A stretch of DNA of 63,836 bases, counting the filler, from Folioceros fuciformis (taxonomy: Eukaryota): NCBI GenBank assembly GCA_049999805.1. It is 9 parts of 9 records of this genome, joined end to end, with 100 filler letters (N's around TTAATTAATTAA, not from the genome) between each part and the next. Parts side by side here need not be neighbours in the genome. Positions count along the whole stretch, not along the records: positions 45,804 to 53,409 come from JBNGIO010004389.1; 8 more parts are not named here. One strand, given 5' to 3'. Each line of letters starts with the position of its first letter. The stretch's first letter is position 1. The notes beneath the pieces are model-generated. The model had not been told where the DNA came from. It made no database searches and saw nothing but the letters and a program-made list of their open reading frames with translations. Positions 5,316 to 59,776 of this stretch are shown in pieces. Both the position numbers and the translations under genes were made by a program.

Positions 5316-5415
5316 NNNNNNNNNNNNNNNNNNNNNNNNNNNNNNNNNNNNNNNNNNNNTTAATTAATTAANNNNNNNNNNNNNNNNNNNNNNNNNNNNN
5401 NNNNNNNNNNNNNNN
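5316..5415. other. Assembly linker N44-TTAATTAATTAA-N44. Also at 7430-7529, 18276-18375, 25782-25881, 30664-30763, 38207-38306, 45704-45803 and 53410-53509
   Basis: Identical all-frame-stop 12-mer centred in 100-nt N blocks, seen eight times. Confidence 0.95.
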
Positions 5416-7429: not shown

Positions 7430-7529
7430 NNNNNNNNNNNNNNNNNNNNNNNNNNNNNNNNNNNNNNNNNNNNTTAATTAATTAANNNNNNNNNNNNNNN
7501 NNNNNNNNNNNNNNNNNNNNNNNNNNNNN

Positions 7530-12710: not shown

Positions 12711-15700
12711 TTACTCATGACCGTCCGAAATTTGTACCAAATCCCCTACAAAATTTTCTATATCTGCATGCCCCAGTTGAATCCGGACACTGCAGAAGCG
12801 GGTGTACACGCTTTCCAGCTGTAGCAAGTTGAAGCCTTCTGTCTGCAAGACAAGCCTCTCCACTAAATGTTGACTCTGATCTTTGTCCAATAGACCACGT
12901 CCATCGTCACCATCGCCGTTTTCTAACGCATGCTCTCCGCTGATCTCCATTGTCTCTGCTGCGTTTTCCCGCACAGTCGAAGCCAAGGTTTCTGACGTCG
13001 GATTCTTGCAGCTGTCAGACTTGTCTTGGGGGTTCTCGAGATCAGCAACGCCAGCTGTGGAGGGCTCCTGCCCTAGTTGTTCGGGGACCAGCTCTTCCAT
13101 ATTGTGCGTCAGAGACTCTGGCTCCCCTGCCATTTCACCTACTGCTAAAGTAGGCAAAGCCGAACATTCAAGAGCCATCTCACCAGCAAATCCCCCTGCC
13201 ACCTCACCTGCATCCATCGTTACTGCCCAATATTAGAAAATGCTCATCACAGCCATCGTAGACAGAAAACTCCATCTCCACGTGCCTTGTTGCAAACCGT
13301 CATTGCTCGTTGTTGGACCCTTCATTGGGATGCCAGAACTTCCAAGAGAATTGGGAAGACGAGAGGTAATATTGGGTCTTTCTGTTGGCCCACCCTGGGC
13401 TGCAATGGCATCACATTGTGCCACTAAGGCAGGTTCCAACTGCGAAAGCATTCCCTGCACCTATAGAAGGACGAATCTCGTTCATTCATGGTCAACTGAA
13501 ACTGTAGCAGCTTTAAACATGGGAAAACAGGAAATTAAATTATACCAAATCACGAAGAGCACATGCTTTACTGTAGATTCGATTAGTTGTGTAGTCATTA
13601 CCATTGTACGCCTGTCACATGTCAGAATGTAGAGTTAGAATTGGAATCTTAAACACGAAATCTTCCAACGGCAGGAAGCTCTCACATACCTTAGCATTGG
13701 CAGGAATTAGCTCCACATCTTCCACAAATCTTTCACGTGTCATGTAGTAACCAGAGTCGACTCGTTGCAATAACGTGGCTACATCCATGGGAGTTTTTAC
13801 GAACTTGCAGTAATCTGGTGCGTCTTGATCTGTCACTGGATAGTGGAACACGCTGAAGTGCTTTTCATGAAGCAGGCTACACCCAACAAGAAGAAAAGTC
13901 AGTTCCACTCAACACACAATCTCGAAAGGGACACAAAATAATGTGCAGTTACTCGGGCTCATCACCTATTGCAAACGTCCCTCAGACACATGCGTAGACG
14001 TCGAACAGCATGTTCCTCAAGGTCTGCCCGTGCAAGCAGTTCAGCCTCGCTTGGACACTTCTCTACAACAGGCGCCTTCGGAAGGGTTGGGAGCGGGGCC
14101 TTCTGCTTCAACTTCTTCCTTGACTTGCGATGTGAGAGTGCAGCTGCTGATTCTATCATATGAGAAAACAACGTCCTTCTATCTCCTGCTGAAGGAATCT
14201 TCAACTCATACCTGAGAGACGTGCAATCGAGAACATTAAATTCTAACTCTCTTCCTCTCAAAAGATGGCTTGATATCAACGACTCCCAAGTTAACTAGCT
14301 AGCAAGCCAACTTACACAGAGTGACCAAACATGCCGAGGGCTTCCTGATCTAATTCCTTGGGAGACACTGATGCAGTGCCTAATAGTAGCACCGGAAGGT
14401 CAGGAGGAACCTCGTACAGAAGCATTAACAGGACTGCACGTAGCTGGTCATGTGCCTGCGTGATATCACTCAACCTTGTTAACATTCCCTCTTCGGTTCT
14501 AACATTTGCATTATCAGTCAAGCAAAAGTCCAACACAGGCCAGTTCATCTCTCCTCTGCCTTCCATAACATTTCAGGAATGGATGTATTTTCCAAAATAG
14601 GTCTGCAGTTTCTTACTGTTTCCCACCAAAGCTGTAGCTGAGGGAGATACAGAACCGATGGAGTACACCGGCGAGCCTCTTGAAAAACGTGAACCAGCGC
14701 TTCTTCAGGACTCTTCGCACTAGCATCCGATAGCAATGCAGGGAGGCTGAGAGAGTGGACGGGATATTTTTCCAGCTCATGAAGAACTGCTGGTCCGACG
14801 TAGTCCTGTCAGTTCCACCAAACAGGAGTTGTAGCTCAGGCATTGCAAAAACAATGAAGCGGAAAGGGAATTGATTGATAACTCACCAAGCCAGTTCCCT
14901 CGACACCGCACACCAAAAACCTTGGTCTGTACACACGAGACACTGAAAAGTTCCGAAATGAAAACAGCCTAGCAAGCTGTTCACCAGTTTCTTCCTCGTC
15001 AGAAGAAATGCCACCATCGTTACCCTCTAGTGAGAAGATTTCGTTAATGCCACTCATGATAGCCTTAACTTGCCCTAGCAAACATGAAGCGACCTGCATA
15101 GGCAAAGGCCGAGCAAGTACAAGAGCTCCTCTGTGTGCAGCAGGTGTAATTGAAGACATAGCTTCAAGGAAGTGTCGCTTTCCAACCTCAATGGAATCCA
15201 AGTCCAAAACATACTGCTCATCATTTGTGTATACTTGAGGATACTTCCTTCGGAAAGCTCTGATTGCCGCTTCGGTGCATAATGCCTTCAAGTCTGCCCC
15301 ACAGTAGCCCACACAGGAGGCTGCGAGTTCGGCCTTCAGTTCCTCTGTAGGCGGAACTACCCACTTCCTGGTGTGAATGTCCAGAATTTCTGCTCGAGCT
15401 TTCAAATCAGGTAACGGAAACACAAATTCTCTATCAAATCGACCAGGCCTCCTCAGTGCACTGTCAATGGCATCAACCCTATTTGTGGCACCAATTACCA
15501 CGACCTGCCCCCGCGAATCAAGGCCATCCATCAAAGCCAGTAACGTTGACACAATGGAGTTATGAATCTGTTCCTGCTTGCTTGAGCGCACTGGCGCCAG
15601 GCCATCTATCTCGTCAAAGAATATAATGGAGGGCTGACAGCGTTGAGCTTCCTCAAACAACGCTTTGAGTTGTCTCTCAGCTTCTCCTACCCATTTGCTC

Positions 15701-17648
15701 AGCACATCGGCACCTTTACGCATAAAGAAACTAACTTTTTTCCCTGCCTTTGATGCTTGAGCAGCTAGAGCCCGAGCCACCAAAGTTTTGCCAGTGCCAG
15801 GTGGCCCACAAAGCAGAACCCCTCTTGGTGGAGTGATATGATGGTTAGCAAAAAAATTAGGATACATCNNNNNNNNNNNNNNNNNNNNNNNNNNNNNNNN
15901 NNNNNNNNNNNNNNNNNNNNNNNNNNNNNNNNNNNNNNNNNNNNNNNNNNNNNNNNNNNNNNNNNNNNCATCAAGGGAAAAAATACCATCTCCTTTAGAG
16001 AATAAATGTAGTTGGACAGACCACCAATCTGGTCAAAACTCACCGATTCATCCACAACTACTGGCTGAATGTCAGCCCCTCCTTTGGAAGTCGGTCCTGC
16101 AGTTTGAACCCCCGCTCCGCCGCCGATGGAGCCCCAATGATCAGTTTGATTTGGAGTTCCCCATGCTGTACCAGCTGCGTTCAGGTTCCAACTTGCAAAG
16201 GCACTCATGTCCCCAAAACTCCCAGGAGGAAGGAAGGGAAGGCCAGCAGAACGGCATGATCGAGCCCATGTACCACCAGGTGCCTGATCCATCTCGTCCA
16301 CAAGGAGAGAGTCGTCAGAATCCCCAGCTCGTTGTCTCTTAAACCCACGCGAGCTACTTGTTCTACCTTCCCGGCCTCGCTTCGTACCGGTCCCTGCGTG
16401 ATACAGTTTGCGAGGAGATCGTGCACGAGAGGCCTGCACTTCTCTACGTGGCGAGAAACGCTGCACCTCAGTTCGGCTCCGTAGAGCATAACGACGCCTG
16501 CCATCCCCCTCATCGCCTTCATCCTCCTCTTCTCCCTCCTCCTCTTCTCCGTTATCAGCTAACTCTCGATCATTCCCGTCCTGCTTCAATTTCCCTTCTT
16601 GCTCCTTCTGCCGAGCCTTCTTCCGCTCCTCTTCCTGCTCATCCTCCTCCTCTTCCTCCTCCTCACCTTCTACCTCCATTTCATCGTCCTCTTCCGAGGA
16701 GGTCTCTTCCTGATCATCCGAATCCTCGTCCTCCGAATACTCCTCCTCGGACAGATATTCCTTTCTCTTAGTCCTACTTTTCTTGCGAGGCCGCAGACCT
16801 GCCCTCCTCGGAGGCTCTTTCCTGCGCAATTTCTTAATCGACCGAAAGCCATGTCTCCTGGACACCTGCACAGCTCCGACTGATCAGCCCCGCCATACCC
16901 GGCCATGCAGCCATTCTCCAAAAACCACCGTTCAGCATACCCACCCTCACAGGTCGGGCCTCGTCCTCACTGTCGGAATCCAGCCCCATGTACGTCGAGC
17001 GTCTCTTTCTGGTGGACCGACGAAGGCTCGTCCCGTTAGGCTGCAACAGAGCAGAGGCAATCAACTCAATCGGCAACCTGACAACCTGGTCCTCGCAGCT
17101 CACAAGACACAGCCATGTTACAAAACGCAACACCGTACCTGCAACGACTCCGCCGCCGCCGCCGCCGCCGCCGCAGCATCAGCAGCATCTTCGGACTGGC
17201 CCCGATCAGATTGCGCCGTTTGCCGGGTCATGTTGTTCTGGCAGCACACATGGAGGAGGAAATCAGCAAAAAAAGAATCGTCTCCCTACTCTGGTACTCC
17301 GTTGCAGGAAGGCTCCAGCCGACTAGCCGACATGGCAAGCTAACAATGCCGTGGCAGGAGCACGCAGACCAGGCCTGCTGGCTTGTCCTCCATGCACTTC
17401 CGTCGGGCTGGCTCGAACCTCTTAGCGATCTCGGAGGCAGGGGGACGGCCCTTACCCTTGCCCCTGCCCTTGCCCGTCACCTTGCCAGCAGAGTAGCCAG
17501 GTTTGTGGAAGTGGCCGAGGCCAAGGGCGCGGGTGCGCAGGCGTGTGATGTGCACGTCGCTGGTGGACGGAAGCGGGACCGGAACCGGAAGGGGGAGTCC
17601 CCGCTGCTCAGCCAAGCCCTGAGGATCCCCACGTCCCGAATCTTCCAT
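12711..17648 (-). CDS. ATAD2: ATAD2/Yta7-family AAA+ ATPase with bromodomain (BRAT1/At1g05910-like). Exons ~17648-17370, 17040-16951, 16865-14887, 14805-14617, 14455-14316, 14211-13966, 13876-13690, 13611-13546, 13460-13286, 13222-12711
   Basis: Walker A GPPGTGKT, FFMRKGADVLSKWVGEAERQL, Walker B IIFFDEIDG, degenerate second AAA domain, bromodomain (FHYPV..DAPDY..PMD..NAKAYN), acidic N-terminus. The 15869-15968 gap has overlapping flanks (FFPLM/MYPNFF). Confidence 0.93.
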
Positions 17649-18275: not shown

Positions 18276-18375
18276 NNNNNNNNNNNNNNNNNNNNNNNNN
18301 NNNNNNNNNNNNNNNNNNNTTAATTAATTAANNNNNNNNNNNNNNNNNNNNNNNNNNNNNNNNNNNNNNNNNNNN

Positions 18376-25781: not shown

Positions 25782-25881
25782 NNNNNNNNNNNNNNNNNNN
25801 NNNNNNNNNNNNNNNNNNNNNNNNNTTAATTAATTAANNNNNNNNNNNNNNNNNNNNNNNNNNNNNNNNNNNNNNNNNNNN

Positions 25882-28800
25882 AGCCTAACAATGCTTTCAA
25901 AACACCACACAGCCCTCTCTAGATCTCCATGGCTTTTGCAGGCATTCAACAAAGATGTCAAACACACCACAGCACTTTGGCCCTCACATGATAATAGCAT
26001 CCTCTCTGCCTCATCTAATCCGCCAGCACGCCCAAGAAGATCAATCATGCAGGTGTGATGCTCAACAGTAGGTATGACACCATGCTGTTCAGCCATGGAA
26101 TCAAAGAGCTTGCGACCCTCCTGGACCAGACCCGCATGACTGCATGCTACTAGAAGGCAAGTAAAAGTAGCATCGTCAGGATGAACACCGGCAGCTAACA
26201 TCTCCTCAAAACAAGATAGCGCCTTGCGACCTTCATCACAAGCGCCATACCCAGCAATCAGGGCATTCCATGTCACCACATCTTTAATGGCCATGCTGTC
26301 AAAAACCTGGCGTGCATCTTCCAGCTCACCACATTTTGCATACATGTCCACCAGGCAGGTGCCCACCACTACATTATCCAGCATTTCTCTTTCAACAATC
26401 TGTGAGTGCAGCTTCCTGCCCTTCTGCAAGGCACCACTGCTTGCACACGCCTTCAGAATGCAAGCAAAAGTAACATCATTAGCCAAAACGAGGCCTGCCT
26501 CCTCCATCCGTCCATACACAACAAGCGCCTCTTGGCCGAGTCCTTGCTGTGCATACCCAGCAATCAGGGCCGTCCACGTCACCACGTCCTTCGACGCCAT
26601 CCTGTCAAAAACATGGCGTGCATATTCAAGCTCACCACATTTTGCATACATGTCCACCAGGCAGGTTCCCACCACTACATCATCCAGCAGACCTCTCTGG
26701 ACAATTTGTGAGTGAAGCTTCCTGCCCTTCTGCAAGGCTCCAATGCTTCCACACGCCTTCAGAAGGCAAGCAAAAGTAACATCATTAGCCAAAACGAGGT
26801 CTGCCTCCTCCATCTGTCCATACACAACAAGCGCCTCTTGCCCGAGTCCTTGCTGTGCATACCCAGCGATCATGGCTGTCCATGTCACCACATCCTTCGA
26901 GGCCAAGCCATCGAAAACCTGGCGGGCATCTTCCAGCTCACCACATTTTGCATACATGTCCACCAGGCAGTTTCCCACCACTATATTATCCAGCAGTTCT
27001 CTCTTCACAATCTGCGAGTGAAGCTCCCTGCCCTTCTGCAAGGCACCAGTGCTTGCACACGCCTTCAGAAGGCAAGCAAAAGTAACACGGTCAGCCAACA
27101 CGAGGCCCGCCTCCTCCATTTGTGCATATACAATAAGCGCCTCTTGGCCGAGTCCTTGCTGTGCATACCCAGCAATCAGGGCATTCCATGTCACCACATC
27201 CTTCGAGTCCATCCTGTCAAAAACCTGGCGGGCATCTTCCAGCTCACCACATTTTGCATACATGTCCACCAGGCAGGTTCCCACCACTACATCATCCAGC
27301 AGACCTCTCTGGACAATCTGTGAGTGAAGCTCCCTGCCCTTCTGTAAGGCCCCAATGCTTGCACACGCCTTCAGAAGGCAGGCAAAAGTGACCCCGTCAC
27401 CCACCACGAGGCCCGCCTCCTCCATTTGTCCATACACAACAAGTGCCTCTTGGCCGAGTCCTTGCTGGGCATACCCAGCGATCAGGACCGTCCATGTAAC
27501 CACATCCTTCGACCCCATCCTGTCAAAAACCTGGCGTGCATATTCCAGCTCACCACATTTTGCATACATGTCCACCAGGCAGGTTCCCACCACTACATCA
27601 TCCAGCAGCCCTCTGCGGACAATCTGTGAGTGAAGCTCCCTTCCCTTCTGCAAGGCACCTGTGCTTGCACACGCCTTCAGAAGGCAAGCAAAAGTAACAA
27701 CACTAGCCAAAACGAGGCCTGCCTCCTCCATCTGTCCATACACAACAAGCGCCTCTTGGCCAAGTCCTTGCTGTGCATACCCACCGATCATGGCTGTCCA
27801 TGTCACCACATCCTTCGAGGCCATGCCGTCGAAAACCTGGCGGGCTTCTTCGAGCTCACCACATTTTGCATACATGTCCACCAGGAAGTTTCCCACCACT
27901 ACATCATCCAGCACACCTCTGTTAACAATCTGTGAGTGCAGCTCCCTGCCTTTCTGCAAGGCTCCACTGCTTCCACACGCCTTCAGAAGGCAAGCGAAAG
28001 TAACACAGTCCGCCAACACGAGGCCTGCCTGCTCCATCTGTCCATACACAACAAGGGCCTCTTGGACGAGTCCTTGCTGTGCATACCCAGCAATCAGGGC
28101 ATTCCATGTCACCACATCTTTCGTGTCCATCCCGTCGAAAACCTGGCGTGCATATTCCACCTCACCACATTTTGCATACATGTCCACCAGGCAGGTTCCC
28201 ACCACTACATTATCCAGCAGTTCTCTCTTGACAATCTGTGAGTGAAGCTCCCTGCCCTTCTGCAACGCACCAGTACTTGCACACGCCTTCAGAAGGCAAG
28301 CAAAAGTAACACGGTCAGCCACCACGAGGCCCGCCTCCTCCATTTGTCCATACACGACAAGTGCCTCTTCGCCGAGTCCTTGCTGTGCATACCCAGCGAT
28401 CAGGGAATTCCATGTCACCACATTCCTCGTGTTCATGCGATCAAAAACCTGGCGTGCATCGTTCATTCGGCCACATTTTGCATACATGTCCACCAAGCAG
28501 CTGTTAACAAACAGGTCAGTACGGAAGCCACTGCGCATCACGTCGCGGTGCACTGTTCTGCCAGATTCTAAATCGGCAGCAAATGCACAAGCTTGAAGGG
28601 CGCCTACAAAGACATAACCATTCGCCCTCACTTCTGACCTACGCATTTCATGGTACAGTTGTATGGCCTCCTTCGCCTTCCCCTGCTTAGCGTGTGCAGA
28701 GATTATGGAAAACCACATGAAGACATTCGGTTTCCCTACCCTGTTGAACACATCCATCGCCTCCTTTAACCTACCTCCACATGCATACATGCGCAAGATA

Positions 28801-29903
28801 TGGTTCCCCAAATATGCATTCGACTCGTACCCAAGTTTGATTGTGAGATCATGAACTCGTCGCCCCACCACCAAATCCTTCTTAGCTGTACAGAGTTTTA
28901 ACACTGTGTAAAACAGAGACTGAGAAACGCCAGAGTCTGACTGCACCAGAGATTCCAGGGCTCCAACCGCCTCAGAAAGCTTCCCCTGATGACATAACAT
29001 GCTCACGGTTGCAGCAGTTACGACGCCCGTTTCCAATTCTGCACGCCTGCCAGATCCACACTTATACAGAGAGCTGCACTCGAAAGAAGAGACTCCATGG
29101 CCCATTGGATGTGGAAGTGCTGGGTTTCTTACACTGCTGCCCCTGGAGCCCATTTCACCACCTGTACTCCTTCCAGGTTCAGGGTGATCTGGAGAGCTCA
29201 AGTTGGAAGCAGACCTCTGCATATCCAAGGNNNNNNNNNNNNNNNNNNNNNNNNNNNNNNNNNNNNNNNNNNNNNNNNNNNNNNNNNNNNNNNNNNNNNN
29301 NNNNNNNNNNNNNNNNNNNNNNNNNNNNNNCAGAGAGCTGCACTCGAAAGAAGAGACTCCATGACCCATTGGATGTGGAAGTGCTGGGTTTCTTACACTG
29401 CTGCCCCTGGAGCCCATTTCACCACCTCTACGCCTTCCAGGTTCAGGATTATCTGGAGAGCTCAAGTTGGAAGAAGAGGAACCGAGACCCATCTGCATAT
29501 CCAAGGAGACGAGCTGCTCATCAACCCAAGCTGGCTTAAACATGTTGTCCAACCACAGCACCTCGCCGGACCTCTTACGCCGGAAGTCAGGGGAACGGGA
29601 GCTCTTCTTGTCTCGTCTGTTATCCCACCACATGGTAGGGTCCAGAAAAAGTTGTTGCCACAAGTGCTCCTGCTGCTCCTGGCAAATACCACCATCGTCG
29701 GAAAACCCGTCCCTGCCCACACACGTTTTCGTTCTCGGAGGTGGAAGTGCTGGGCTCCTGACACTGCTGCAGCTGGAGGCTTTGTTTGCAAAGGGTTCAT
29801 TCCCCAAGCTGAGGTGAGCGGGGGTTCCGGGTAGAGTGCTTGTATACACACCAATTCCAATTTGTTGGGTCCACAACAGGTCCGGTTGCCATGCTGTGGC
29901 CAT
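25882..29903 (-). CDS. PLS-class PPR RNA-editing-factor-like protein with N-terminal PDF motif; C-terminus (E2/DYW) lost at linker
   Basis: Seven near-identical 102-aa triplets (36+35+31 aa), then P2-L2-S2-E1. Intronless open frame apart from one N gap. Confidence 0.92.
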
Positions 29904-30113: not shown

Positions 30114-30763
30114 TTTACTACCTGTCGGCGACCTGTCGGACTGGTGCTTTAGACCACTCTACCATGTGACGGTTATTAGGTAGTAACTTTATGTTTCAGT
30201 TTAGATAGACAAAACTGTTAATTACTTGTCAGCCTCCGTAAGGAAAACAAGATTTTCATTTAAGGCTTGTCAACGTTAAGTGCATGCCGTCCTACATACC
30301 CCAAGATATTTTGACCGAACCATGGTATCACGGTCTCTGTTTCTCATCACGCAGTTGGGTCAAGTGGTATCTTGAAGGCCGAAACGGTGACGCGGTCCTG
30401 CATGTGACTAGACGAGGAATTGCCGTTAAGTAAATGTCTAGATATGTGCCTCGCACTGCCTGGATTGTCAATGGGGTTGCTAGTTTCACCTGCTTCCTGT
30501 GAACTGCCAAGCTCTTGTGCCTGGATACTCCTCGGCATACTGGCTACCAATGTGCTTTCACCTGCACTGTACACCATCATATACATACGGCACTATTGGT
30601 AAGGAAACCGAGTTGCGGAGACCCTGCAAAGCACGTGTACAACGTGCTCATCATGAACAGTGTNNNNNNNNNNNNNNNNNNNNNNNNNNNNNNNNNNNNN
30701 NNNNNNNTTAATTAATTAANNNNNNNNNNNNNNNNNNNNNNNNNNNNNNNNNNNNNNNNNNNN

Positions 30764-38206: not shown

Positions 38207-38306
38207 NNNNNNNNNNNNNNNNNNNNNNNNNNNNNNNNNNNNNNNNNNNNTTAATTAATTAANNNNNNNNNNNNNNNNNNNNNNNNNNNNNNNNNNNNNN
38301 NNNNNN

Positions 38307-40290: not shown

Positions 40291-40309
40291 CAACATGGTG
40301 GAGCAAGCA

Positions 40310-41136
40310 ATTAAGGTTTAGAGTTTAGCGGCATGGCAAACCGAAATGAGTTTGGGGTTTAGTAGAATAGCATAGCAAAATGAGATTAGGATTTAGTGGC
40401 ATGGCAAAGCAACAAGGGTTTACAGTTTAAAAGCATGGCAACAGCAGAATGAATTTAGGGCATGACGGAGGAGAATAAGTGTAGGGTTTAGAGGCATTGT
40501 AATGAAAAATAGGTTTAGGGTTTAGTGGCATAATGGAGCAGAATGGGTTTAGGGTTTTGCCCTCTATGGGTTTAGGGTTTAGCCACATAGAGGGCATTAT
40601 AGGGTTATGGCAGAGTGAAAATATAGAAAATATAAAGCCACTCCATGAAAAGTGGGCATATGTGAGAGGTTCTTGAGAAAGAACAAATCGAGTATTTGGC
40701 GCATGTTGGTATCAATATTCCATACTATTGCAATGTGAAATATCAAGAAAATATACAATGGCAGAATGGAGTGGGTTTATGGTTTAGTGATATTAATGAA
40801 GTGGGTTTATATATTGTGTGAAAATAGAGTGGGTCCATTTTGTGAAAATATAGAAAATATAAAATGGCAAAATGGAGTGGGTTTAGGGTTTAGCGACATG
40901 GCAGAGTAGAATGGGTTTAGGGTTTAACGATATGGTAGAGAGAAATGAATTAGGGTTTTATCAGCATTATGGATCAAAATGGGTTTAAGGTTTAATGACA
41001 TGACATAGCTGAATAGGTTTAGGGTTCAATGACATGATGGAGAAAAGTGGGTTTAGGGTTTTATTAGCAGTGTGGAGAAAAATGGGTTTAGGGTTGAGCG
41101 GCTTAGAGTGGAGCATATGGAGGGCATTATAGGGTT
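40310..41136 (+). repeat. Degenerate minisatellite built around the plant telomere motif (GGGTTTAGGGTTT) with ~20-25-nt spacers
   Basis: TTTAGGGTTT at ~40514, 40548, 40571, 40882, 40916, 41053 and others. Confidence 0.7.
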
Positions 41137-45703: not shown

Positions 45704-45803
45704 NNNNNNNNNNNNNNNNNNNNNNNNNNNNNNNNNNNNNNNNNNNNTTAATTAATTAANNNNNNNNNNNNNNNNNNNNNNNNNNNNNNNNNNNNNNNNN
45801 NNN

Positions 45804-48800
45804 AGATTCCTTTTCCTAGGGCACCTGCACATCGTGCGTCCAACATTCTAGAATTAGTTCATGCAGACATATCTGACAAGATACATATACCTAGTCTGGG
45901 AGGTGCACAATATTATTTAACCCTCACAGACGACTACAGCCATTACTCCTGGACTTACCCTATTGTTTTGAAGTCCGAGACTTTTACTGTGTTCCAAGAG
46001 TGGCTTGCTATGGTGCAGAGGCAACAGGGTGCTTGCTCAAATGTCTCCGCACTGACAACAGCTCAGAATTTGTGAATGCTCACTTTGACCTGTTTCTGCT
46101 TGACAGTGGTGTCATCAGGCAGTTGATTGTGCCATACACCTAGCAACAAAATGGAGTTGCTGAGCAGCGCCATCAGACCCTATTGGGCATGACAAGAAGC
46201 ATGTTAGAATGGTCTGGCTTGAGCAAGACTTTCTGGGCGGAAGCAGTGGTAACTACTACTTACATTCTGAATCATCTCTTGACAAGTGCAGTGCCTGGGC
46301 AGACTCCCTTTGAAGTCATATGGAGGAGAAAACCCAGCCTTCTTCATCTCAGGGTGTTTGGGTCTCCAGCTTACGTTTATATCCCTGCGGAGAAACGCAA
46401 GAAACTCAAAGACAGGGCAAAGCCTATGCTTTTCGTAGGATATGGCGAAGAAGCAAAGGCATACAAATTATATGACACACTTACAAAGACAGCAGTATTT
46501 GCTCGCAGTGTGACGTTCAAGGAGCTCCTTTGCCCGGCCAAGCCCTATTTTGATTCTCTGCCACATCACCAGGAGTCCGTTACTCACATTGATCTGACGA
46601 ACATGGATGATTCTTCAATTTTTCCACAAGATTATGTTCCTTCAGAACCTGGATAGTCCTTAGCATCCGTTCCGTCAGTTCCACCTCCAGTTCAGCAGCC
46701 AGCTCATGTTCTACCTCCTGTAGCGGGATAGGACCCTGTAGCAGTTCCTGTTCTTGCTGATCTTCCCCCTCAAGATGCTTTGCCGGCTGATCCTCACCGT
46801 GAAGATGCTGCAGACCATGCTGATTTTGCAGATGATGTTTCACATACATCTCTGTCAGACTCTGCTAGTGACATCTCTGTTGTTGCTGAGGACCCCGCCG
46901 TCCCTCTTGTTTTTCTTCCAGACCCTGAGCCACCTCCTCGTTATCCTACTCGCCAACGTCTGCCTCCTTCTCAGTGGGCAACGCCTCCTTATGCCTCCAT
47001 AGATTTCCGTAGACCTAGAGCCGGTGTTTCCCTTCCACAGTCTTCACCCTCTCCCTTAGATGCTGGTTCCTCTATCAAGCCAGAGCCTCGGTCTTACACA
47101 GAAGCTATCGAGGGCCCTGACAAGGATTTTTGGATTCCCTCTATTCAGGATGAGTATCAATCTCTCGTGAAAAATGATACATGGGAACTTTGTCCCCTGC
47201 CAGCAGGAAGAAAGGTGGTAAGCTGCAAATGGGTTTTCAAGCACAAATTGAACGCAGATAGTGAGATAGCTAGATATAAATCTTGCCTCGTTGCTCGTGG
47301 GTTTACACAAGTGCCTAGCGTGGACTTCACCGACACTTTCAGCCCTGTGGTTAAGACTCATTCCATCCGCATGATACTAGCCCTCGCTGTTGCCAATGCT
47401 TGGGATCTTCAGCAGATGGATGTCTGCACAGCATTTTTATATGGCGAGTTAGAAGAGGATATTTATATGGCTCAACCCGAGGGTTTCACTGATCTTGACC
47501 ACCCTGATTGGGTCTGTCGCCTAAAGAAAACGATCTACGGCCTTAAACAATCAGCTAGAGAGTGGTATAGAACAATTGATGCATATCTCAAGTCTATTGG
47601 TTTTCTTCAGAATCCTGGGGACGCCAATGTTTACCTCTATGCTTCAGATGGCCAAATTGTTATTTTGGCCCTGTATGTAGATGATGCTGTATTAGCATCC
47701 AATGATCCTGGTTTGTTAGCTTGGGTCAAGCAAATGCTACATCAGAAATTTGATATGAAGGATATCGGTTCTCTTACCTTTGTTCTTGGTGTTCAACTTG
47801 TTCATGATTTGCCTTCCCGTACTATCATGCTCCACCAAGCCAAGTACATTCGTGAGACCCTTCATCGTTTTCAGCTGGAGTCTGCTCATCCCGTTTCCAC
47901 TCCTGGGGTCCCTGGCGCTAAACTCTCAGCTGCTCAGAGTCCTCAGACTGATGTTGACAAACAGGATATGGCCCTTGTTCCTTATCGTCATGCTGTCGGT
48001 TGCTTGAATTATATCAGCTGTTGGACTCGTCCAGACATTCAGTATGCCATCAGTGTCGTCTCCCAGTTTCTTGATAACCCTGGCAGAGAGCATTGGGGAG
48101 CTGTTAAACGCATTCTGCGGTATTTGAAGGGTACTTTGCATTACGGCTTATGCTTCAGGGGGCGAAATACCGAGACTGAGCTTACCATTGCTGGCTTTGC
48201 TGATGCTGACTGGGCCACTGATCCCGATGCTTGGAGAAGCATATCCGCTTACTGCTTTACCCTGTCAAATGCAGCCATCCACTGGAGTTCAAAGAAGCAA
48301 TTTTCAGTAGCACTCTCCTCCACGGAGGCTGAGTACAAAGCTTTACCTGAAGCAGCTAAGGAAGCAATCTGGGAACGCTGTTTTATGAAAGGCCTTGGTT
48401 TCCAGCAGTCACAGCCGACATCTATCTTCTGTGATAACAGATCAACCATTGCCATGACGGCTAACCCAAGATTCCATGCCCGTACAAAGCACATAGAAGT
48501 GCATCACCACTTTATTCGCCATTCTGTGGAAGAGAAGGAAGTCAAGATTCAGCACATTTCCACAGACTACAACCCTGCAGATTTGCTCACGAAATATTTT
48601 CCCGCTCGTAAACAACTGCTACACATGGAAGCTCTAGGAGTGAAGGACTGCTCTCCACCAACGACGTTGTCCACCTGACTACCAACATTGTTGCGTATGG
48701 TGGATGAAGCTTCATCACGTACCCAATCGCATACTGCAGAGCAGTCGTTGGTTCTCAGGTTACTCTGGAGGCAGCGGACTGGCAGCTGCGCGCTTCAGTT

Positions 48801-49255
48801 GCTCTTCAAGGGTCTCTTCTTCCATGTTGAATGTTGGCTCGTCCTCCAGCTCTCTAACAGCGAGTGAGACGCCGAACCGACATTCCCAGCTCGCGATCTG
48901 CCATCTTTGCTCTGTTGCGAGCTCCCTCCATTTGTTGTGACCGTGCTGGTTTTTCCTAACCCTCGTGCGCCTTCTCCTTTTCTCTGCTCCTCACATACAT
49001 GGTGATACAAGAGGAATACCGCGATCAGGAAGGCACAGAGTGTTAGCAGTGTGTTCACAGTCTCCGCCATCCGCGTGTCACTCCGTTATCAACAGCGTGC
49101 TCTGTTTACGGGGGCGTGTTGAGAATGAACTCCCGTTAGGGTTCATGGTCATATAAACTGACAAGCTGTTAATAATAGTTAATTAGTTATATGAACAGAT
49201 GTGAATATACACAAGTTTTGTATAAGACATATTGTGTAATTAACTAAAATTATTA
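45804..49255 (+). mobile_element. Ty1/Copia integrase-RT-RNaseH, PPT and short 3' LTR (~49117-49255)
   Basis: 632-aa open RT/RNaseH frame 46780-48678 (QMDV, YVDD, ADADWA). GGGGGCG then TGTTG at 49117. Confidence 0.92.
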
Positions 49256-50120
49256 GTCTAAGTCTCTATATATTCTCCTGTCAGTTACTAGCAAATCCAT
49301 AAAACTTTTAAAATAAAATTTGTGAGCATCACCACTCAACAAGTTCCCCAACAAAGTAAATTCATACCTAGGATCTAATTCAATGTCTTCACCACCACAC
49401 TCCTGTAACTTGATCATATAAAACTTGCACATCAACTGATTAATAGACACTAATGACTTCGGACGTCCTGAATACTTCTCACTTCTTGCAGGTAGCACCA
49501 CTCCACCTCTGCCTTTCTTCTCCAGTCCGAAAACTTTGTCAGTTGGTGAGATTAACATTTGACTGTCTTGTCCTCCCATCAATTTTATTGACTTGTCCAC
49601 ACCTCCTGGATGCTCCTGCGTCCCCGTAGCCTCCACAGTTTGGTTTTGAACATCCATAACAAGTTCTTTGTCTCTAATTACAAACCCTCTCTCCTTACAT
49701 AAATGCCTCCATTCCTCATCTGAGAACTGTGGTCTCTCCCCCCTTGCCTCTATTCCTTCAGATGTTTTATGCTTTTAACCCAAGTCCTAATTAAGCGATG
49801 TATTCTCAACTTCTTCCTCTCCTTCACTACTTAAGGCATTCACCCTATGCGGAATCCTTCCTTCCTCTTCCAACACACTTCCTNNNNNNNNNNNNNNNNN
49901 NNNNNNNNNNNNNNNNNNNNNNNNNNNNNNNNNNNNNNNNNNNNNNNNNNNNNNNNNNNNNNNNNNNNNNNNNNNNNNNNNNNATTCTCTCCCTCCCATT
50001 TATCCTTAGTCGCCCCACCTTTCTCTTAAATCTTTTATCCCTATTTCTACTCCCCATCACTCTGTCGTTAAGTTTCTCAACTTCCCCATTCTCAACCTCA
50101 TGATTTGACCTTGGAGACAA
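49256..50120 (-). mobile_element. Gag-like ORF remnant of a Gypsy element
   Basis: EKYSG....L...F......LLSGDAHKFY resembles a capsid N-terminus. Cut by the Copia LTR. Confidence 0.45.
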
Positions 50121-51399
50121 TCATGCTTGTCTTGCACTAGCTCATGTAATTCTAACACCCTTGGACTTAGGTTTCCTCATGTTAAAAAGTTTATAATGAG
50201 CTTAACCAAATTAACAAGTCAAGGTTTGATAACTTTTGAAGCTACTCTGTTTCTACACTAATTTATGTCCAAACCAACACGGAAATAGTGTAGAATACAC
50301 CAGCTCAAAAACTAGACGTCTTATAGCATTCCACACTAAGTTCTCTCTCCTTTCAATCTAAACACGCCACGAAGCTGTCTACATCTGCAAAATGCCTCTT
50401 AAGCACTACAAGACCTTCACAAAATACTTCCAACTAACTCCAACTGCACAGTTTGGAGCACCCTATGATAAGGTGTTGCAAACTTTGCTACCTTCATTTT
50501 TTTCTTCCTCTTCTTCTTTGGACTTTTGATCCTCCTTTGCAATTTGGTCACTCTTTTCTTCCTTCTTCTCTTTAGCTTCTACTACATTCTCTTTCGCAAG
50601 CTCACACTCTTTGACATGTTCAGATTGACCTACACAACTTCTATTACACTTTACACCCACGTTGTCCACTAATCATTTCTAAACAGTTCTTTAGCTTAGC
50701 TCTCAAAACAGTCTTTTACATAGATGAATAGAACTTTGACCATGTACACTCTTTAGCCTATCTCTAAGCTGCAGGTCCTCCCTCACTACTACTACTTACT
50801 GATTTCAAACAAATACTATGAATTACAGGCTCATTAACAAACTTTTCTAAGTTAAGCCTATTAGATCTTCTCACTGGAAGATTTCCAATCTCTGCACCAT
50901 CAGCAACCTTCCATCTAGCAAAGCCTCTAGGATACGTTCTTCCCCTCCCGGCCTGATAGCTTGAGCTTCTCTTGGGAAGATCCCATTACGAGTGGCTGAG
51001 AGAACCAGGTTTGCCAGAGCTGGGCGAGAGCTTACGGCTAGGGAGGTGTAGAAGCAACGTGAGTTAGAAGACATCCGTTCTACGAGTCTGCTGAGAGGGT
51101 AAGGAGTAGCGTCAACTTTTGGGAATCTGAGAGGGCGGCAGCAGGACGTTGCTTTTGAAGTTATTTCAAGGTAGCATCATCAGCTAAAGAAAGGGGAGTC
51201 TCGACTACGAAGGGGGAGTGTCGGGAGCAGTCGAAAAGGTTTGGAGGAGCCTAGGAAAGTTGATCAAGCTCCCCTTTAATTTTCTCCACCTTTCTCAGGC
51301 GGCTGAGTTGGAGAGATTGCGGGGAGCAGGGCTAAGCCATGGTTTGGAAAGGCGATTGTTAGTGTATGTGGGCCGCCCGTGTGGATTTGACATAGCGAT

Positions 51400-53409
51400 T
51401 TGATCGGTTGTATTTGGAGCATGTTGGAGTTGGGTATCAAGGTGGGAGTGAACGAAGCAAAAATACAAAAACTTCTGCAGGACGTGATATTGGAGTGGTC
51501 TGAAGAGAATAATACATTGAGCAAGATGGTTTCACTCTGTTTAAACAGTAATAGTCGAAATAATGAAGACAGATCAAAAGTTAGAACGGGAATTGCATTT
51601 TTGGATAATAGTGGATGCGAGTTTTTGATAGATGGTTTTGCGCTAGAAAGGGTATTGATGGATTCGAGGGCACAGCCTACGTTAATTCATTTCAATGGAG
51701 CATATGCCATGGGATTGAGGAAGGGGGATATACAGGAGACAAGATGGAAAATAAGAATGACCAATGGAGGTTTGGAGGCAGTGATGGGGGAGACTAGGAA
51801 AAAATTGCAATTATGTATGTGGAACATAGGAGAAGACAGTAACTGGTATGAAGTGCTTGATTGTTAAATCTGGAAATGTTGATGTCATCTTGGGAACATA
51901 AGCTTTGTTTATGCCTAGAGGAGGAGTGGATTTGTGGACAAAGGAGTTTTATTACCGTCCGGGGTGGCGACAAGGTGAGGGAATGAGAGTGGCAACAATT
52001 GCACTTAAATTGCAGTTGCAGAAGGATGGGCAAGATGCATGCATAGTAAACATGACAACCTCTTTGGATGAACAGGATGAAGAAGATGAACATGATAGAT
52101 TGTGGGTTTTGCGTCATGTGGATAAGTCATGTTTTAAAGAATGTAGTAATATCAGATTGGAAGAGGATTCAATGAGAGAGTGTTGGTAGAGCATTAGCTG
52201 AGATCAAGAAGAATTGATCTTATAATAGCTAGTTGGGAATGCCAAGGGCACTCAATGGCAGGCAAAGGAAAGGGTTTGTTAGATTATAGGTCTGTGTTAT
52301 TTTATGAGCTAATAAGGATTTTAAATTTGGTACAAAAACATCAAAAGAAAGAATGTGGGTTTTTTTATTGAAAATGTAGACTCACAGATGGATAGGAGAG
52401 GTGTGTTGAGGTAGGATTTTGAGGAAATCAAGTATTATTTAGGTGAACCTATAAAGTTGGATGCGGTGCAATTTGGATCTAGGGCTCACAGACATTGGTG
52501 TTTCTGGAATAACATGATGCCTAAGCATTTGTTGCAAAGGCATGCAAATCAGTGGCATAGGGATGATGATTTGATAGTTGATCAGATATTAGATGAGGGG
52601 TGAGTAAGTAAGCGGGTGACTTCATATGACAAACAACTCTTTTATTGTATAAATAAAAAGGGTCAACTTAGGAGAGCATTGGCAACATTTGTTAGTTTTA
52701 AAAATGCTAATGCATTTAAGGGGGATGGACCTGGGATGATATTTGACACGAAGAGAAATATGTGGGATGTGCTATCTCCTATAGAGACAGAGAGAGCAAT
52801 GGGTTTTGATACAAATACCACTAAGGTGGAGGGCATAACATTTGAGCATAGAAACAAAAAGCTTGAGCAAGCTATGGATTTAAATACCATTTAGTGGCTT
52901 ATGATGTCTATCAAAGTTTACCAGGAGTGGAAAGTTATTTTGAATACAAGGATGGAGGAGCGTAATTTGGGTGAAGTAAAAGGGACGGAAGTCTAGAAGT
53001 TGGGCGGGAGATTAAGAGGATGAGAGAAGGTGATGATGTTTTGGGTGATAATTGTAAGCGAAACAAGCAAGTGAGATATGATGAAAAGACTGCAGAAGTA
53101 GAGAAGGGATCTAGAAGTGGTGTTAGTCTAAATAATGGAGTGAACATCTGTGAGAAACAAGAACATACGGATTTTCAAAGGGACATTTCTGACAAAATGA
53201 CAGTCGAGGATAGGGGGGATTTTGCAAAGATCTTGGGAAAATGTAGGCAGGTGTTTGCTTTTTTCAATAAGGAATTGGGAGGCACAAGATGTTTAAGTTT
53301 AAGATTCGACTTAAAACTTCGGAGCCAGTTTTTAGAAGGCCATATTGCTTGAGTAAAGTAGAGAATGAGATTGTGGATAAAAAGTGTCAAGAGTTTCTGG
53401 AGGCAGGAT
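51400..53409 (+). mobile_element. Ty3/Gypsy pol remnant: aspartic protease, C5-cytosine methyltransferase, start of RT
   Basis: VLMDS(R/G)AQP at ~51650 and DVILG at ~51880, then the DNMT motifs, then VFAF...ELG and PVFRRPYCLSKVE...VDKKCQEFLEAG at ~53250-53408. Confidence 0.85.
52213..52900 (+). pseudogene. DNA (cytosine-5)-methyltransferase domain encoded within the retrotransposon pol
   Basis: IDLIIASWECQGHSMAGKGKGLLDYRSVLFYELIRIL (IV-V), FFIENV (VI), LDAVQFGSRAHRHWCFWNN (VII-VIII), ETERAMGF...T (IX), RNKKLEQAMDLN (X). Confidence 0.88.
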
Positions 53410-53509
53410 NNNNNNNNNNNNNNNNNNNNNNNNNNNNNNNNNNNNNNNNNNNNTTAATTAATTAANNNNNNNNNNNNNNNNNNNNNNNNNNNNNNNNNNN
53501 NNNNNNNNN

Positions 53510-59180: not shown

Positions 59181-59430
59181 TGTTGGGTTATTAAAGCCCA
59201 ATGTGCTTAGACTAATGTGTTTAGTCTAAGATTAGTGTTTAAGATTAGCTTAGCTTAAGCTAATCTTTAGGAAGCTTCTTGTGAGCTTCTTGTGAAGCTT
59301 CCTTGGGAGCTCTTCTAGGGGGTATAAATACCCCTTGAGCTCCCTTGCAATATAAAGTGAGATTGGTAGAGACTCTGGGTGAGAGTGTGACCTCTCTTTC
59401 TCCTCTCCTCCTTGCTTCCTCCTTCACCAT
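59181..59430 (+). mobile_element. Nested 5' fragment of the Athila-like LTR
   Basis: Starts TGTTGGGTTATTAAAGCCCAATG; homologous to 5511-5875. Confidence 0.75.
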
Positions 59431-59451
59431 GTGGCTCCTCTAGCAATCCTT

Positions 59452-59776
59452 TACTTAGAAAAGAGTCTGGCGATCTACGCCCCAAAATAAATGCTCTTTA
59501 TTCAAGATACTTAGAAAAGAGTCTGGCAATCTATGCCCCAGAATAAATGCTCTTTATTCAAGATACTTACAAAAGAGTCTAGCGATGTACGCCCCCGAAT
59601 AAATGCTCTTTATTCAAGATACTTACAAAAGAGTTTGGCAATCTATGCCCCAGAATAAATGCTCTTTATTCAAGATACTTACAAAAGAGTTTGACAATCT
59701 TTGCCCAAGAATATAGATACTTACAAAAGAGTTGCCATAAAGATACTTACAAAAGAGTCTAGCGATTTACGCCCCA
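59452..59776. repeat. 56-bp tandem repeat, ~5 copies, inside an LTR
   Basis: AATAAATGCTCTTTATTCAAGATACTTA at ~59486, 59542, 59598 and 59654. Confidence 0.9.

Follow-up and report, generated by a model that had tools for sequence, protein, structure and literature searches.

Can a land plant genome hold a Ty3/Gypsy retrotransposon that carries its own C5-cytosine DNA methyltransferase (DNMT)? The question is raised by a fragment in the window analysed here, a stretch of 63,836 nucleotides made of concatenated scaffolds from the Folioceros fuciformis assembly, where the initial annotation had read a protease, a methyltransferase and the start of a Gypsy RT on one contig. The map of N's and linkers bears out that the contig is gap-free; the "one contig" is in fact a 3426-base (3.4-kb) piece of an unplaced scaffold, and to that extent the earlier description has to be narrowed. 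On its + strand the order is retroviral-type protease (PR), C5-DNMT motifs IV to X, Gypsy RT lead-in and contig end (Table 1). Judging from its sequence and from that of its relatives, the fragment is very probably a Ty3/Gypsy LTR retrotransposon copy, decayed and truncated, and the polyprotein of the element would read gag(CCHC)-protease-DNMT3-like cytosine methyltransferase-RT-RNase H-integrase.

Table 1. Features of the contig that holds the fragment; positions count along the window.
Feature	Position	Strand	Evidence or remark
Fragment-holding contig, gap-free	49984..53409	.	Left boundary a 100-N gap, right boundary the linker that joins scaffolds
Retropepsin-like protease, first half	51556..51822	+	Matched by aa 602-674 of Marchantia P0292 (tblastn) and by positions 3-91 of the family PR profile (E 5.8e-12)
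Protease, second half, next frame	51821..51994	+	Matched by aa 703-748 of P0292 (tblastn) and by positions 93-149 of the family PR profile (E 2.6e-8)
Linker	51995..52206	+	Motifs I-III expected before its right end and absent: clade profile positions 1-104 unmatched
DNMT motifs IV-V	52207..52365	+	PF00145 30.0 bits, E 4.5e-7; clade profile positions 105-156, E 6e-21
DNMT motifs VI-X	52343..52915	+	Clade profile positions 149-339, E 2.4e-64; 415 representative matches
T-run, 1-base reading-frame shift	52360..52366	+	Frames of translations and profile; sequencing-run copies differ by one base here
DNMT-RT spacer, no recognised domain	52916..53187	+	No match to Pfam or family profiles
Gypsy RT lead-in, two frames, cut by contig end	53188..53408	+	Family lead-in profile; tblastn with P0007 aa 1337-1396

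Translation and profile matches placed motifs IV to X in canonical order and at the positions reported before. The frame-1 piece at 52198-52371 reads A-S-W-E-C-Q-G at motif IV, and the codon of the catalytic Cys, which had been put at 52240, occupies 52240-52242. It was found that this motif IV-V piece, aligned to positions 61-99 of PF00145 with the score given in Table 1 (curated cut-off 22 bits), was the only one of seven translated pieces with a real Pfam match. In the window Glu precedes the catalytic Cys and the Pro-Cys form is absent; Glu likewise stands in place of Pro in 12 of 19 motif matches in relatives of the same architecture, and in 32 of 49 in the second architecture discussed below. 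Between the frame-1 piece and the next frame the slip in the T-run was seen as first described. This second frame (52358-52894), read with X at its in-frame stops (TAG 52412, TGA 52601 and TAG 52892), contains the anticipated E-N-V of motif VI at 52370-52378, and its motif VIII is R-H-W, where relatives have R-x-R. The C-terminal DNMT part alone gave no DNA_methylase match in a Pfam search, and phmmer against PDB matched nothing but designed Kelch repeats, by chance over 20 residues, and these were discarded. As a query against proteins it matched 415 representatives at E<=1e-3 and 184 at E<=1e-10, with the best match at 4e-33 and 41% identity. The clade DNMT profile of Table 1 was built from 25 close relatives.

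With this profile, motifs I to III (positions 1-104, including the F-x-G-x-G cofactor binding of motif I) found no match in six frames of the scaffold. The matched end of PR and motif IV are separated by about 70 residues in the window against 198-214 in relatives. A remnant of motif I read by eye in a third frame, at about 52083-52200, was rejected as the clade profile finds nothing there. A DRM-like circular permutation, in which motifs I-III would follow motif X, was likewise rejected, the six-frame profile search being negative. In the relatives motif I precedes motif IV and the motif order is not rearranged; the conservation line and the sequences of intact relatives retain motifs I, IV, VI, VIII, IX and X. 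Contigs of other copies from the sequencing runs stop fitting at 52199-52201, just before motif IV, and this point may be a deletion breakpoint.

The PR and RT lead-in pieces had no Pfam match and were identified by profiles built from relatives, with E-values that refer to a search space of the six translated frames only. The RT lead-in profile matched at 53235-53408 over positions 18-75 (E 2.1e-12) and in another frame over positions 2-44 (E 6e-4). By tblastn the window is colinear with P0292, P0007 and P0282, the family profiles agree, and the order of PR, DNMT and RT lead-in read initially is thereby upheld. It should be noted here that the placement of the DNMT within a Gypsy Pol frame is shown by colinearity with single-ORF relatives, the window's own frame being broken. 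Of the Gypsy Pol order (PR-RT-RNase H-integrase) the window shows PR and the RT lead-in only; complete relatives show the full order. An LTR, primer-binding site, gag, RT core, RNase H or integrase was not visible in the window, the contig being 3.4 kb long and ending in the RT lead-in. No direct repeat of at least 80 bases was found on the contig, nor was a second copy of the fragment or an Rfam match found in the window.

The second half of the protease carries an in-frame TAA at 51899-51901, and the active site reads D-S-R-A where relatives read D-t-G-A, thus departing from D-(T/S)-G; the change from DSG to DSR is taken as decay of this copy. That the copy is dead, as had been supposed, is evident from PR, DNMT and RT lead-in, each of which is split by frameshifts and stops. 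Because of these split domains, the loss of the SAM-binding third of the DNMT (motifs I-III) and the changes in key protease and motif VIII residues, the window copy cannot make the protein. It is functionless and contributes presence and decay only.

Many of the 415 representatives are Gypsy polyproteins. When nine top matches were scanned for domains, PF00145 was present in seven and Gypsy pol domains in six. The order CCHC-PR-DNMT-RT-RNaseH-IN is complete in one relative of 2188 aa; the domains of P0007 are CCHC, Asp protease, DNA_methylase, RVT_1, RNase H and integrase. PR and/or RT flank the DNMT in the window's order in 25 of 187 related proteins, and 72 of the 187 have RT-RH-DNMT-IN, whole or in part. 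In a first tree one branch (SH-aLRT 95) splits 55 from 105 rows. The 55-row side holds 22 rows of the window's order, 32 DNMT-only rows and the window, with none of the RT-RH-DNMT-IN type; the 105-row side holds 69 rows of that type and none of the window's. The DNMT of the window thus falls inside a clade holding only the PR-DNMT-RT architecture, and intact or longer relatives share the order, which substantiates the architecture first proposed. In a careful tree all six liverwort rows and the window fall together in a group of 34 rows (97/93), and all 11 Closterium rows are in a separate group of 17 (97/84). The exact place of the window is unsure because of the long branch (0.84) and odd composition of its row. 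Named relatives with the window's order come from Closterium spp. (Zygnematophyceae) and from two liverworts, Marchantia polymorpha and Calypogeia fissa, and by these sequences the family is a streptophyte lineage.

Among solved structures the family profile matched DNMT3A/B/C at 2e-16, M.HhaI at 2e-8 and the DRM-type plant methyltransferase 4onj at 3.5e-6, and DNMT1 was not found at E<=1e-3. The match to DNMT3A/B/C is eight orders better than that to any other class, and by profile similarity the family enzyme is closest to DNMT3A/B among these structures. A search of the ESM Atlas with the DNMT part from Marchantia returned generic DNA_methylase clusters only.

Methyltransferase-bearing retrotransposons of dinoflagellates and of a charophyte had been mentioned in the initial annotation and are indeed published (available part of PMC5890265); lately, such elements have come from Cymbomonas and Euglena (available part of bioRxiv 10.64898/2026.05.21.726589). 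As described in the former, KnitGypsy-Dnmt3 of Klebsormidium nitens is, like the family of the window, a streptophyte Gypsy LTR element with a DNMT3-related, non-rearranged methyltransferase in the Pol frame. It differs in that the host of the window is probably an embryophyte and the window copy is dead and without motifs I-III, a comparison made by description. No K. nitens protein was found among 30 clusters looked up or among 22 proteins listed, and the trees are without Klebsormidium. We call the window fragment a further putative member of the streptophyte Gypsy-DNMT3 elements of de Mendoza 2018, its kinship with the Klebsormidium elements being judged by description. According to the available part of PMC5890265, the sole published assay that included the Klebsormidium Gypsy-Dnmt3 enzyme gave an inconclusive result. 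SymbioDIRS-Dnmt3 and SymbioLINE-Dnmt of Symbiodinium, in the same part of that source, are also methyltransferase-carrying retrotransposons, but of other element classes (DIRS and LINE). The EpiLTRs of Cymbomonas and Euglena carry a cytosine methyltransferase too, but at the 3' end of pol and with an adenine methylase, and DNMT4 rather than DNMT3 is the reported sister of their DNMTs (available part of bioRxiv 10.64898/2026.05.21.726589).

Liverwort relatives of the window fragment are the Marchantia polymorpha proteins Mp_4g09160, Mp_6g11220, MARPO_0020s0163, MARPO_0084s0073 and MARPO_0008s0049 and an unnamed product of Calypogeia fissa, which have the order CCHC-PR-DNMT; in Mp_6g11220 and MARPO_0084s0073 the start of RT follows. 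They show 35-38% identity over 98-99% of the 179-residue window query and share its tree group (97/93); their frames, unlike that of the window copy, are open and include motifs I-III. Branch lengths of 0.005-0.03 separate the near-identical Marchantia copies. Proteins of Closterium spp. (e.g. CAI7886383.1 and GJP34393.1) have the order PR-DNMT-RT-RH-IN, P0050 reading DNMT-RT-RH-IN, and belong to the same major DNMT clade, but they form a well-supported subgroup of their own (100/99, 15 rows) with the window outside. RT-RH-DNMT-IN-PHD Gypsy polyproteins, such as Cz02g39130 of Chromochloris zofingiensis, hold a homologous DNMT in Gypsy Pol (E in the 1e-22 range); it lies between RNase H and integrase, with a PHD finger after integrase, and on the other side of the DNMT tree. 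In agreement with the earlier remark, a literature search found no characterised embryophyte family and no paper describing the Marchantia and Calypogeia proteins as elements. Novelty is lowered because public records already contain the family, annotated as hypothetical proteins in Marchantia polymorpha and Calypogeia fissa.

The genome from which the window comes holds many diverged copies of the element. In three sequencing runs of the same organism 295, 305 and 427 contigs fit at 80% or more, most of them below 95%, and 17 to 19 different contigs per run overlap position 51760. The runs listed as containing the fragment include no RNA dataset. The host is probably a land plant, as had been assumed. 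The basis for this is indirect: a PLS-class PPR gene and an At1g05910-like exon lie elsewhere in the window, on scaffolds other than that of the contig. A Copia ORF at 46732-48678 was tried as a taxon marker and was uninformative, its best matches being 63-71% identical. It could be asked whether the contig derives from a foreign source, such as an alga or a different bryophyte living on the sampled plant, in which case the DNMT element would not be the host's. The contig is small and unplaced, its G+C of 0.41 is below the 0.46-0.52 of the other scaffolds of the window, its nearest relatives are environmental sequences, and every run holding it comes from a single sample. The three runs do not independently prove that the contig is the host's, because they represent one sample and one study and are possibly the source of the assembly. 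Hundreds of diverged family contigs per run, however, are more in keeping with a resident repeat family than with contamination in trace amounts. The CpG observed/expected ratio of 0.39 (0.45-0.59 on the other scaffolds), the scaffolding of the contig to a piece of Copia such as neighbouring scaffolds also carry, and the heavy decay, as expected in a large repeat-rich genome, also speak against contamination, which we consider improbable.

Far less credible still is that part of a host DNMT3 or DRM gene lies by chance between retrotransposon pieces. In favour of this, the DNMT part has motifs IV-X alone, and among solved structures a host DNMT3 comes closest to the family; PR, DNMT and RT lead-in, on the other hand, share strand, order and similar spacing with the single ORFs of relatives, and this colinearity was taken to rule the host gene out. 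The DNMT part also falls inside an element-borne clade, there is no sign of an intron, and the rearranged motif order of DRM is not seen. A further question is how motifs I-III of the fragment were lost. The loss could possibly mark a subfamily bearing this deletion, which would have spread with no functional DNMT of its own by using proteins of complete elements, a suggestion to which we give limited credence. In its favour, contigs of other copies, about 13-16% different, are colinear with the window over 51820-52201, and internal deletion joints are numerous among copies. Against it, the fit of these contigs ends at 52199-52201, and five X3 contigs diverge from the window from 52179 onward; the same contig ends fit a breakpoint private to the window copy equally well.

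For intact members of the Gypsy family, it could be envisaged that the DNMT is made within Pol and that the element protease either releases it or leaves it N-terminal to RT. The enzyme would therefore find itself near new cDNA or the integration site, where, by analogy with DNMT3-type enzymes, it may add 5-methylcytosine de novo. Damping of the element's own expression, marking of new insertions and touching of host DNA are candidate effects, as are the methylation of the element's cDNA and the modulation of host methylation put forward in the initial annotation.

The fragment is a real but incremental find, as this kind of family has been described from a freshwater alga and is present in liverwort protein records. 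It extends a PR-DNMT3-RT lineage that spans from Zygnematophyceae to liverworts and at least one further probable land plant, and that is distinct from the second green-lineage architecture, RT-RH-DNMT-IN-PHD. What a transposon gains from a DNMT of its own is testable, since Marchantia polymorpha, a species with routine genetics and methylome analysis, has open and near-identical copies. Based on these copies and on the many copies in the host of the window, we tentatively suggest that PR-DNMT3-RT Gypsy elements might have been inherited from streptophyte algae into land plants and might still be mobile in some of them. If this is true, land plants would harbour a transposon-encoded de novo methyltransferase acting on new insertions or on host DNA, and it could be studied in a tractable model.

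The initial annotation had described the fragment as Ty3/Gypsy sequence with its own C5-cytosine DNA methyltransferase (DNMT) between protease and reverse transcriptase (RT), and this is confirmed as right in kind: judged from its sequence, it appears to be a piece of a dead Gypsy element in which a DNMT3-type methyltransferase lies between protease and RT. Translation gives the motif IV cysteine, the frame change in the T-run and the ENV motif as they had been read. The order of domains is present in a related protein, P0007 (2188 aa), which contains a zinc knuckle, aspartic protease, DNA_methylase (978-1226), RVT_1, RNase H and integrase. The corresponding parts of the window were placed by tblastn and confirmed by DNMT, protease and RT lead-in profiles built from relatives, the E-values of which refer to a handful of translated frames and not to a database. 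The expected likeness to PF00145 held for one part of the domain: among seven pieces only 52198-52371 matched a fitting Pfam family (30.0 bits, cut-off 22, E 4.5e-7, profile positions 61-99), and the second DNMT part, searched alone with Pfam, gave no match. PDB sequence matches of that second part were chance ones to designed repeats and were rejected.

Positions of the fragment, its scaffold and other features of the window
Feature	Position	Detail
Linkers (N44-TTAATTAATTAA-N44)	5316-5415, 7430-7529, 18276-18375, 25782-25881, 30664-30763, 38207-38306, 45704-45803, 53410-53509	
Scaffold with DNMT fragment	45804-53409	
100-N gap in this scaffold	49884-49983	
Gap-free contig with fragment	49984-53409	3426 bases
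Protease	51568-51771 and 51845-51982	tblastn with related proteins
Protease profile positions 3-91	51556-51822	E 6e-12
Protease profile positions 93-149	51821-51994	E 3e-8
DNMT motif IV (Cys 52240-52242), then motif V	52198-52371	translation, frame 1
Motifs IV-V	52201-52350	tblastn with related proteins
DNMT profile positions 105-156	52207-52365	E 6e-21
Frame change within DNMT (T-run)	52360-52366	
Second DNMT part	ENV (52370) to 52894	next frame; stops at 52412, 52601, 52892
Motifs VI-X	52349-52903	tblastn with related proteins
DNMT profile positions 149-339	52343-52915	E 2e-64
RT lead-in	53232-53408	tblastn with related proteins
RT lead-in profile positions 18-75	53235-53408	E 2e-12
At1g05910/ATAD2-like exon	14836-15867 (-)	343 residues, open
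PPR gene without introns	25884-29228 (-)	nine units, 101-102 residues each; C-terminal extension
Satellite of ~34-base units with TTTAGGG-like cores; 56-base tandem repeat, five units	40297-41062 and 59396-59731	

The copy is thoroughly dead, as had also been claimed, because it carries at least three frameshifts (protease, DNMT and RT lead-in), every part is interrupted by in-frame stops, the protease active site reads D-S-R in place of D-t-G, motif VIII reads R-H-W where R-x-R is expected, and the cofactor-binding third of the enzyme is lost. Motifs I-III (DNMT profile positions 1-104) found no match in a six-frame translation of the scaffold, and the end of the matched protease lies about 70 residues from motif IV, as against 198-214 in relatives. 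On its other half this scaffold carries part of a Copia RT, the next scaffold opens with Copia gag and integrase, and no second copy of the DNMT stretch was found within the window. The window does not represent a single locus but consists of unplaced scaffolds strung together; the linkers interrupt each of the six reading frames with a stop, and features on either side of one are not physically linked.

A profile of twelve close relatives was compared with solved structures, and it matched DNMT3A/B/C (E 2e-16 to 1e-13), M.HhaI (2e-8), a DRM-type plant methyltransferase (4onj, 3.5e-6) and DNMT2 (2.5e-4), with no match to DNMT1 at E<=1e-3; the same ranking was obtained with a single related protein, P0003. 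Motifs I, IV, VI, VIII, IX and X are kept in intact relatives. Both Pro-Cys-Gln, the usual form, and Glu-Cys-Gln are found as motif IV throughout the family, and the window (52237-52245) has the Glu form. Most members of both architectures described below have Glu (65 Glu against 42 Pro in 114 motif matches).

The second DNMT part, with stops as X (P0001, 179 residues), was searched among 1.84 billion representative proteins and found 415 relatives at E<=1e-3, of which 184 reach E<=1e-10 (best 4e-33, 41% identity). Under Pfam, seven of the nine top relatives contain PF00145 and six contain Gypsy pol domains. Five related proteins (P0008, P0010, P0031, P0036 and P0039) show the order (RT-)RNase H-DNMT-integrase-PHD and stand for a second, larger group of green-lineage Gypsy polyproteins, in which the DNMT homologue sits between RNase H and integrase and the integrase is followed by a PHD finger; no paper on such polyproteins was found in the literature. 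When the five domains of P0007 were mapped onto 187 related proteins, 25 had the window's order (PR-DNMT, DNMT-RT or longer), 72 had RT-RH-DNMT-IN or part of it, 85 had DNMT alone and five neither order. Two Marchantia proteins reach the start of RT and one Closterium protein is DNMT-RT-RH-IN. A word-indexed search for longer proteins gave 22 matches, six of them from liverworts (five hypothetical proteins of Marchantia polymorpha and one product of Calypogeia fissa). By BLASTP the Marchantia protein Mp_4g09160 aligns with P0007 in DNMT (41% over 338 residues, 2e-68), protease (25% over 244 residues, 2e-13) and the CCHC knuckle. Cluster look-ups named Closterium strains NIES-53, -54, -65, -68 and Naga37s-1 for the window's order and Chromochloris zofingiensis as the sole named member with the other.

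The two orders are also parted in the DNMT tree of 160 rows, where one branch (SH-aLRT 95) separates 55 rows (22 with the window's order, 32 DNMT-only, the window, and none of the other order) from 105 (69 of the other order, 36 DNMT-only, and none with the window's). In a 59-row tree the window falls within a group of 34 (ultrafast bootstrap 97, SH-aLRT 93) with all six liverwort rows and 27 environmental rows, and all 11 Closterium rows lie in a separate group of 17 (97/84). The window branch is long (0.84) and odd in composition, and therefore no placement finer than the 34-row group is given.

A land-plant host is indicated by further scaffolds of the window. The unit pattern of the PPR gene is presumably that of the P-L-S triplets of the RNA-editing class, which is known almost exclusively from land plants; the gene itself resembles a PLS-class editing-factor gene grown by recent internal duplication. 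Its nine 102-residue units are near-identical, and the end of the scaffold truncates it at the C-terminus. The exon of the bromodomain AAA ATPase is 69-72% identical to liverwort, lycophyte, conifer and angiosperm orthologues alike, and is therefore without power to place the host. It is unlikely that the contig is contamination. The stretch is present in three sequencing runs of one sample (X1, X2 and X3), which may themselves be the source of the assembly and hence not independent of the contig. At 80% likeness 295, 305 and 427 run contigs fit the window contig, of which 25, 24 and 14 fit at >=99% and 141, 148 and 195 at under 90%, and at position 51760 each run has 17 to 19 different overlapping contigs; on these counts many diverged copies of the family exist in the sampled DNA. 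Most differences from the window are transitions, and CpG observed/expected is 0.39 in the contig against 0.45-0.59 in the other scaffolds, which fits decay in a methylated genome. X3 contigs have T at all depth at many sites where the window, X1 and X2 have C, and G>A changes are likewise in excess against 49984-53409. This pattern suggests that X3 is a bisulfite or enzymatic-conversion library, from which the methylation state of the copies could be read.

The kind itself is already known, and the fragment adds a member to it. In Klebsormidium nitens, KnitGypsy-Dnmt3 has been described as DNMT3-related, intron-free, contained in the Pol reading frame of a Gypsy LTR element and under purifying selection, with an inconclusive yeast assay (de Mendoza et al. 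2018, PMC5890265); the word 'Marchantia' is absent from the main text of that paper. A passage of a 2026 preprint (10.64898/2026.05.21.726589) has 'streptophytes (Gypsy-DNMT3)' among known cases. No embryophyte element of this kind was described in the literature found, the coverage of which leaves out most subscription journals and supplements. The lineage is already visible in embryophytes through the public protein records of Marchantia and Calypogeia, apparently without comment. The window copy by itself adds little. More useful is the picture of the family, with two architectures and with members reaching from Zygnematophyceae to liverworts; the open, near-identical copies in Marchantia are part of that outcome.
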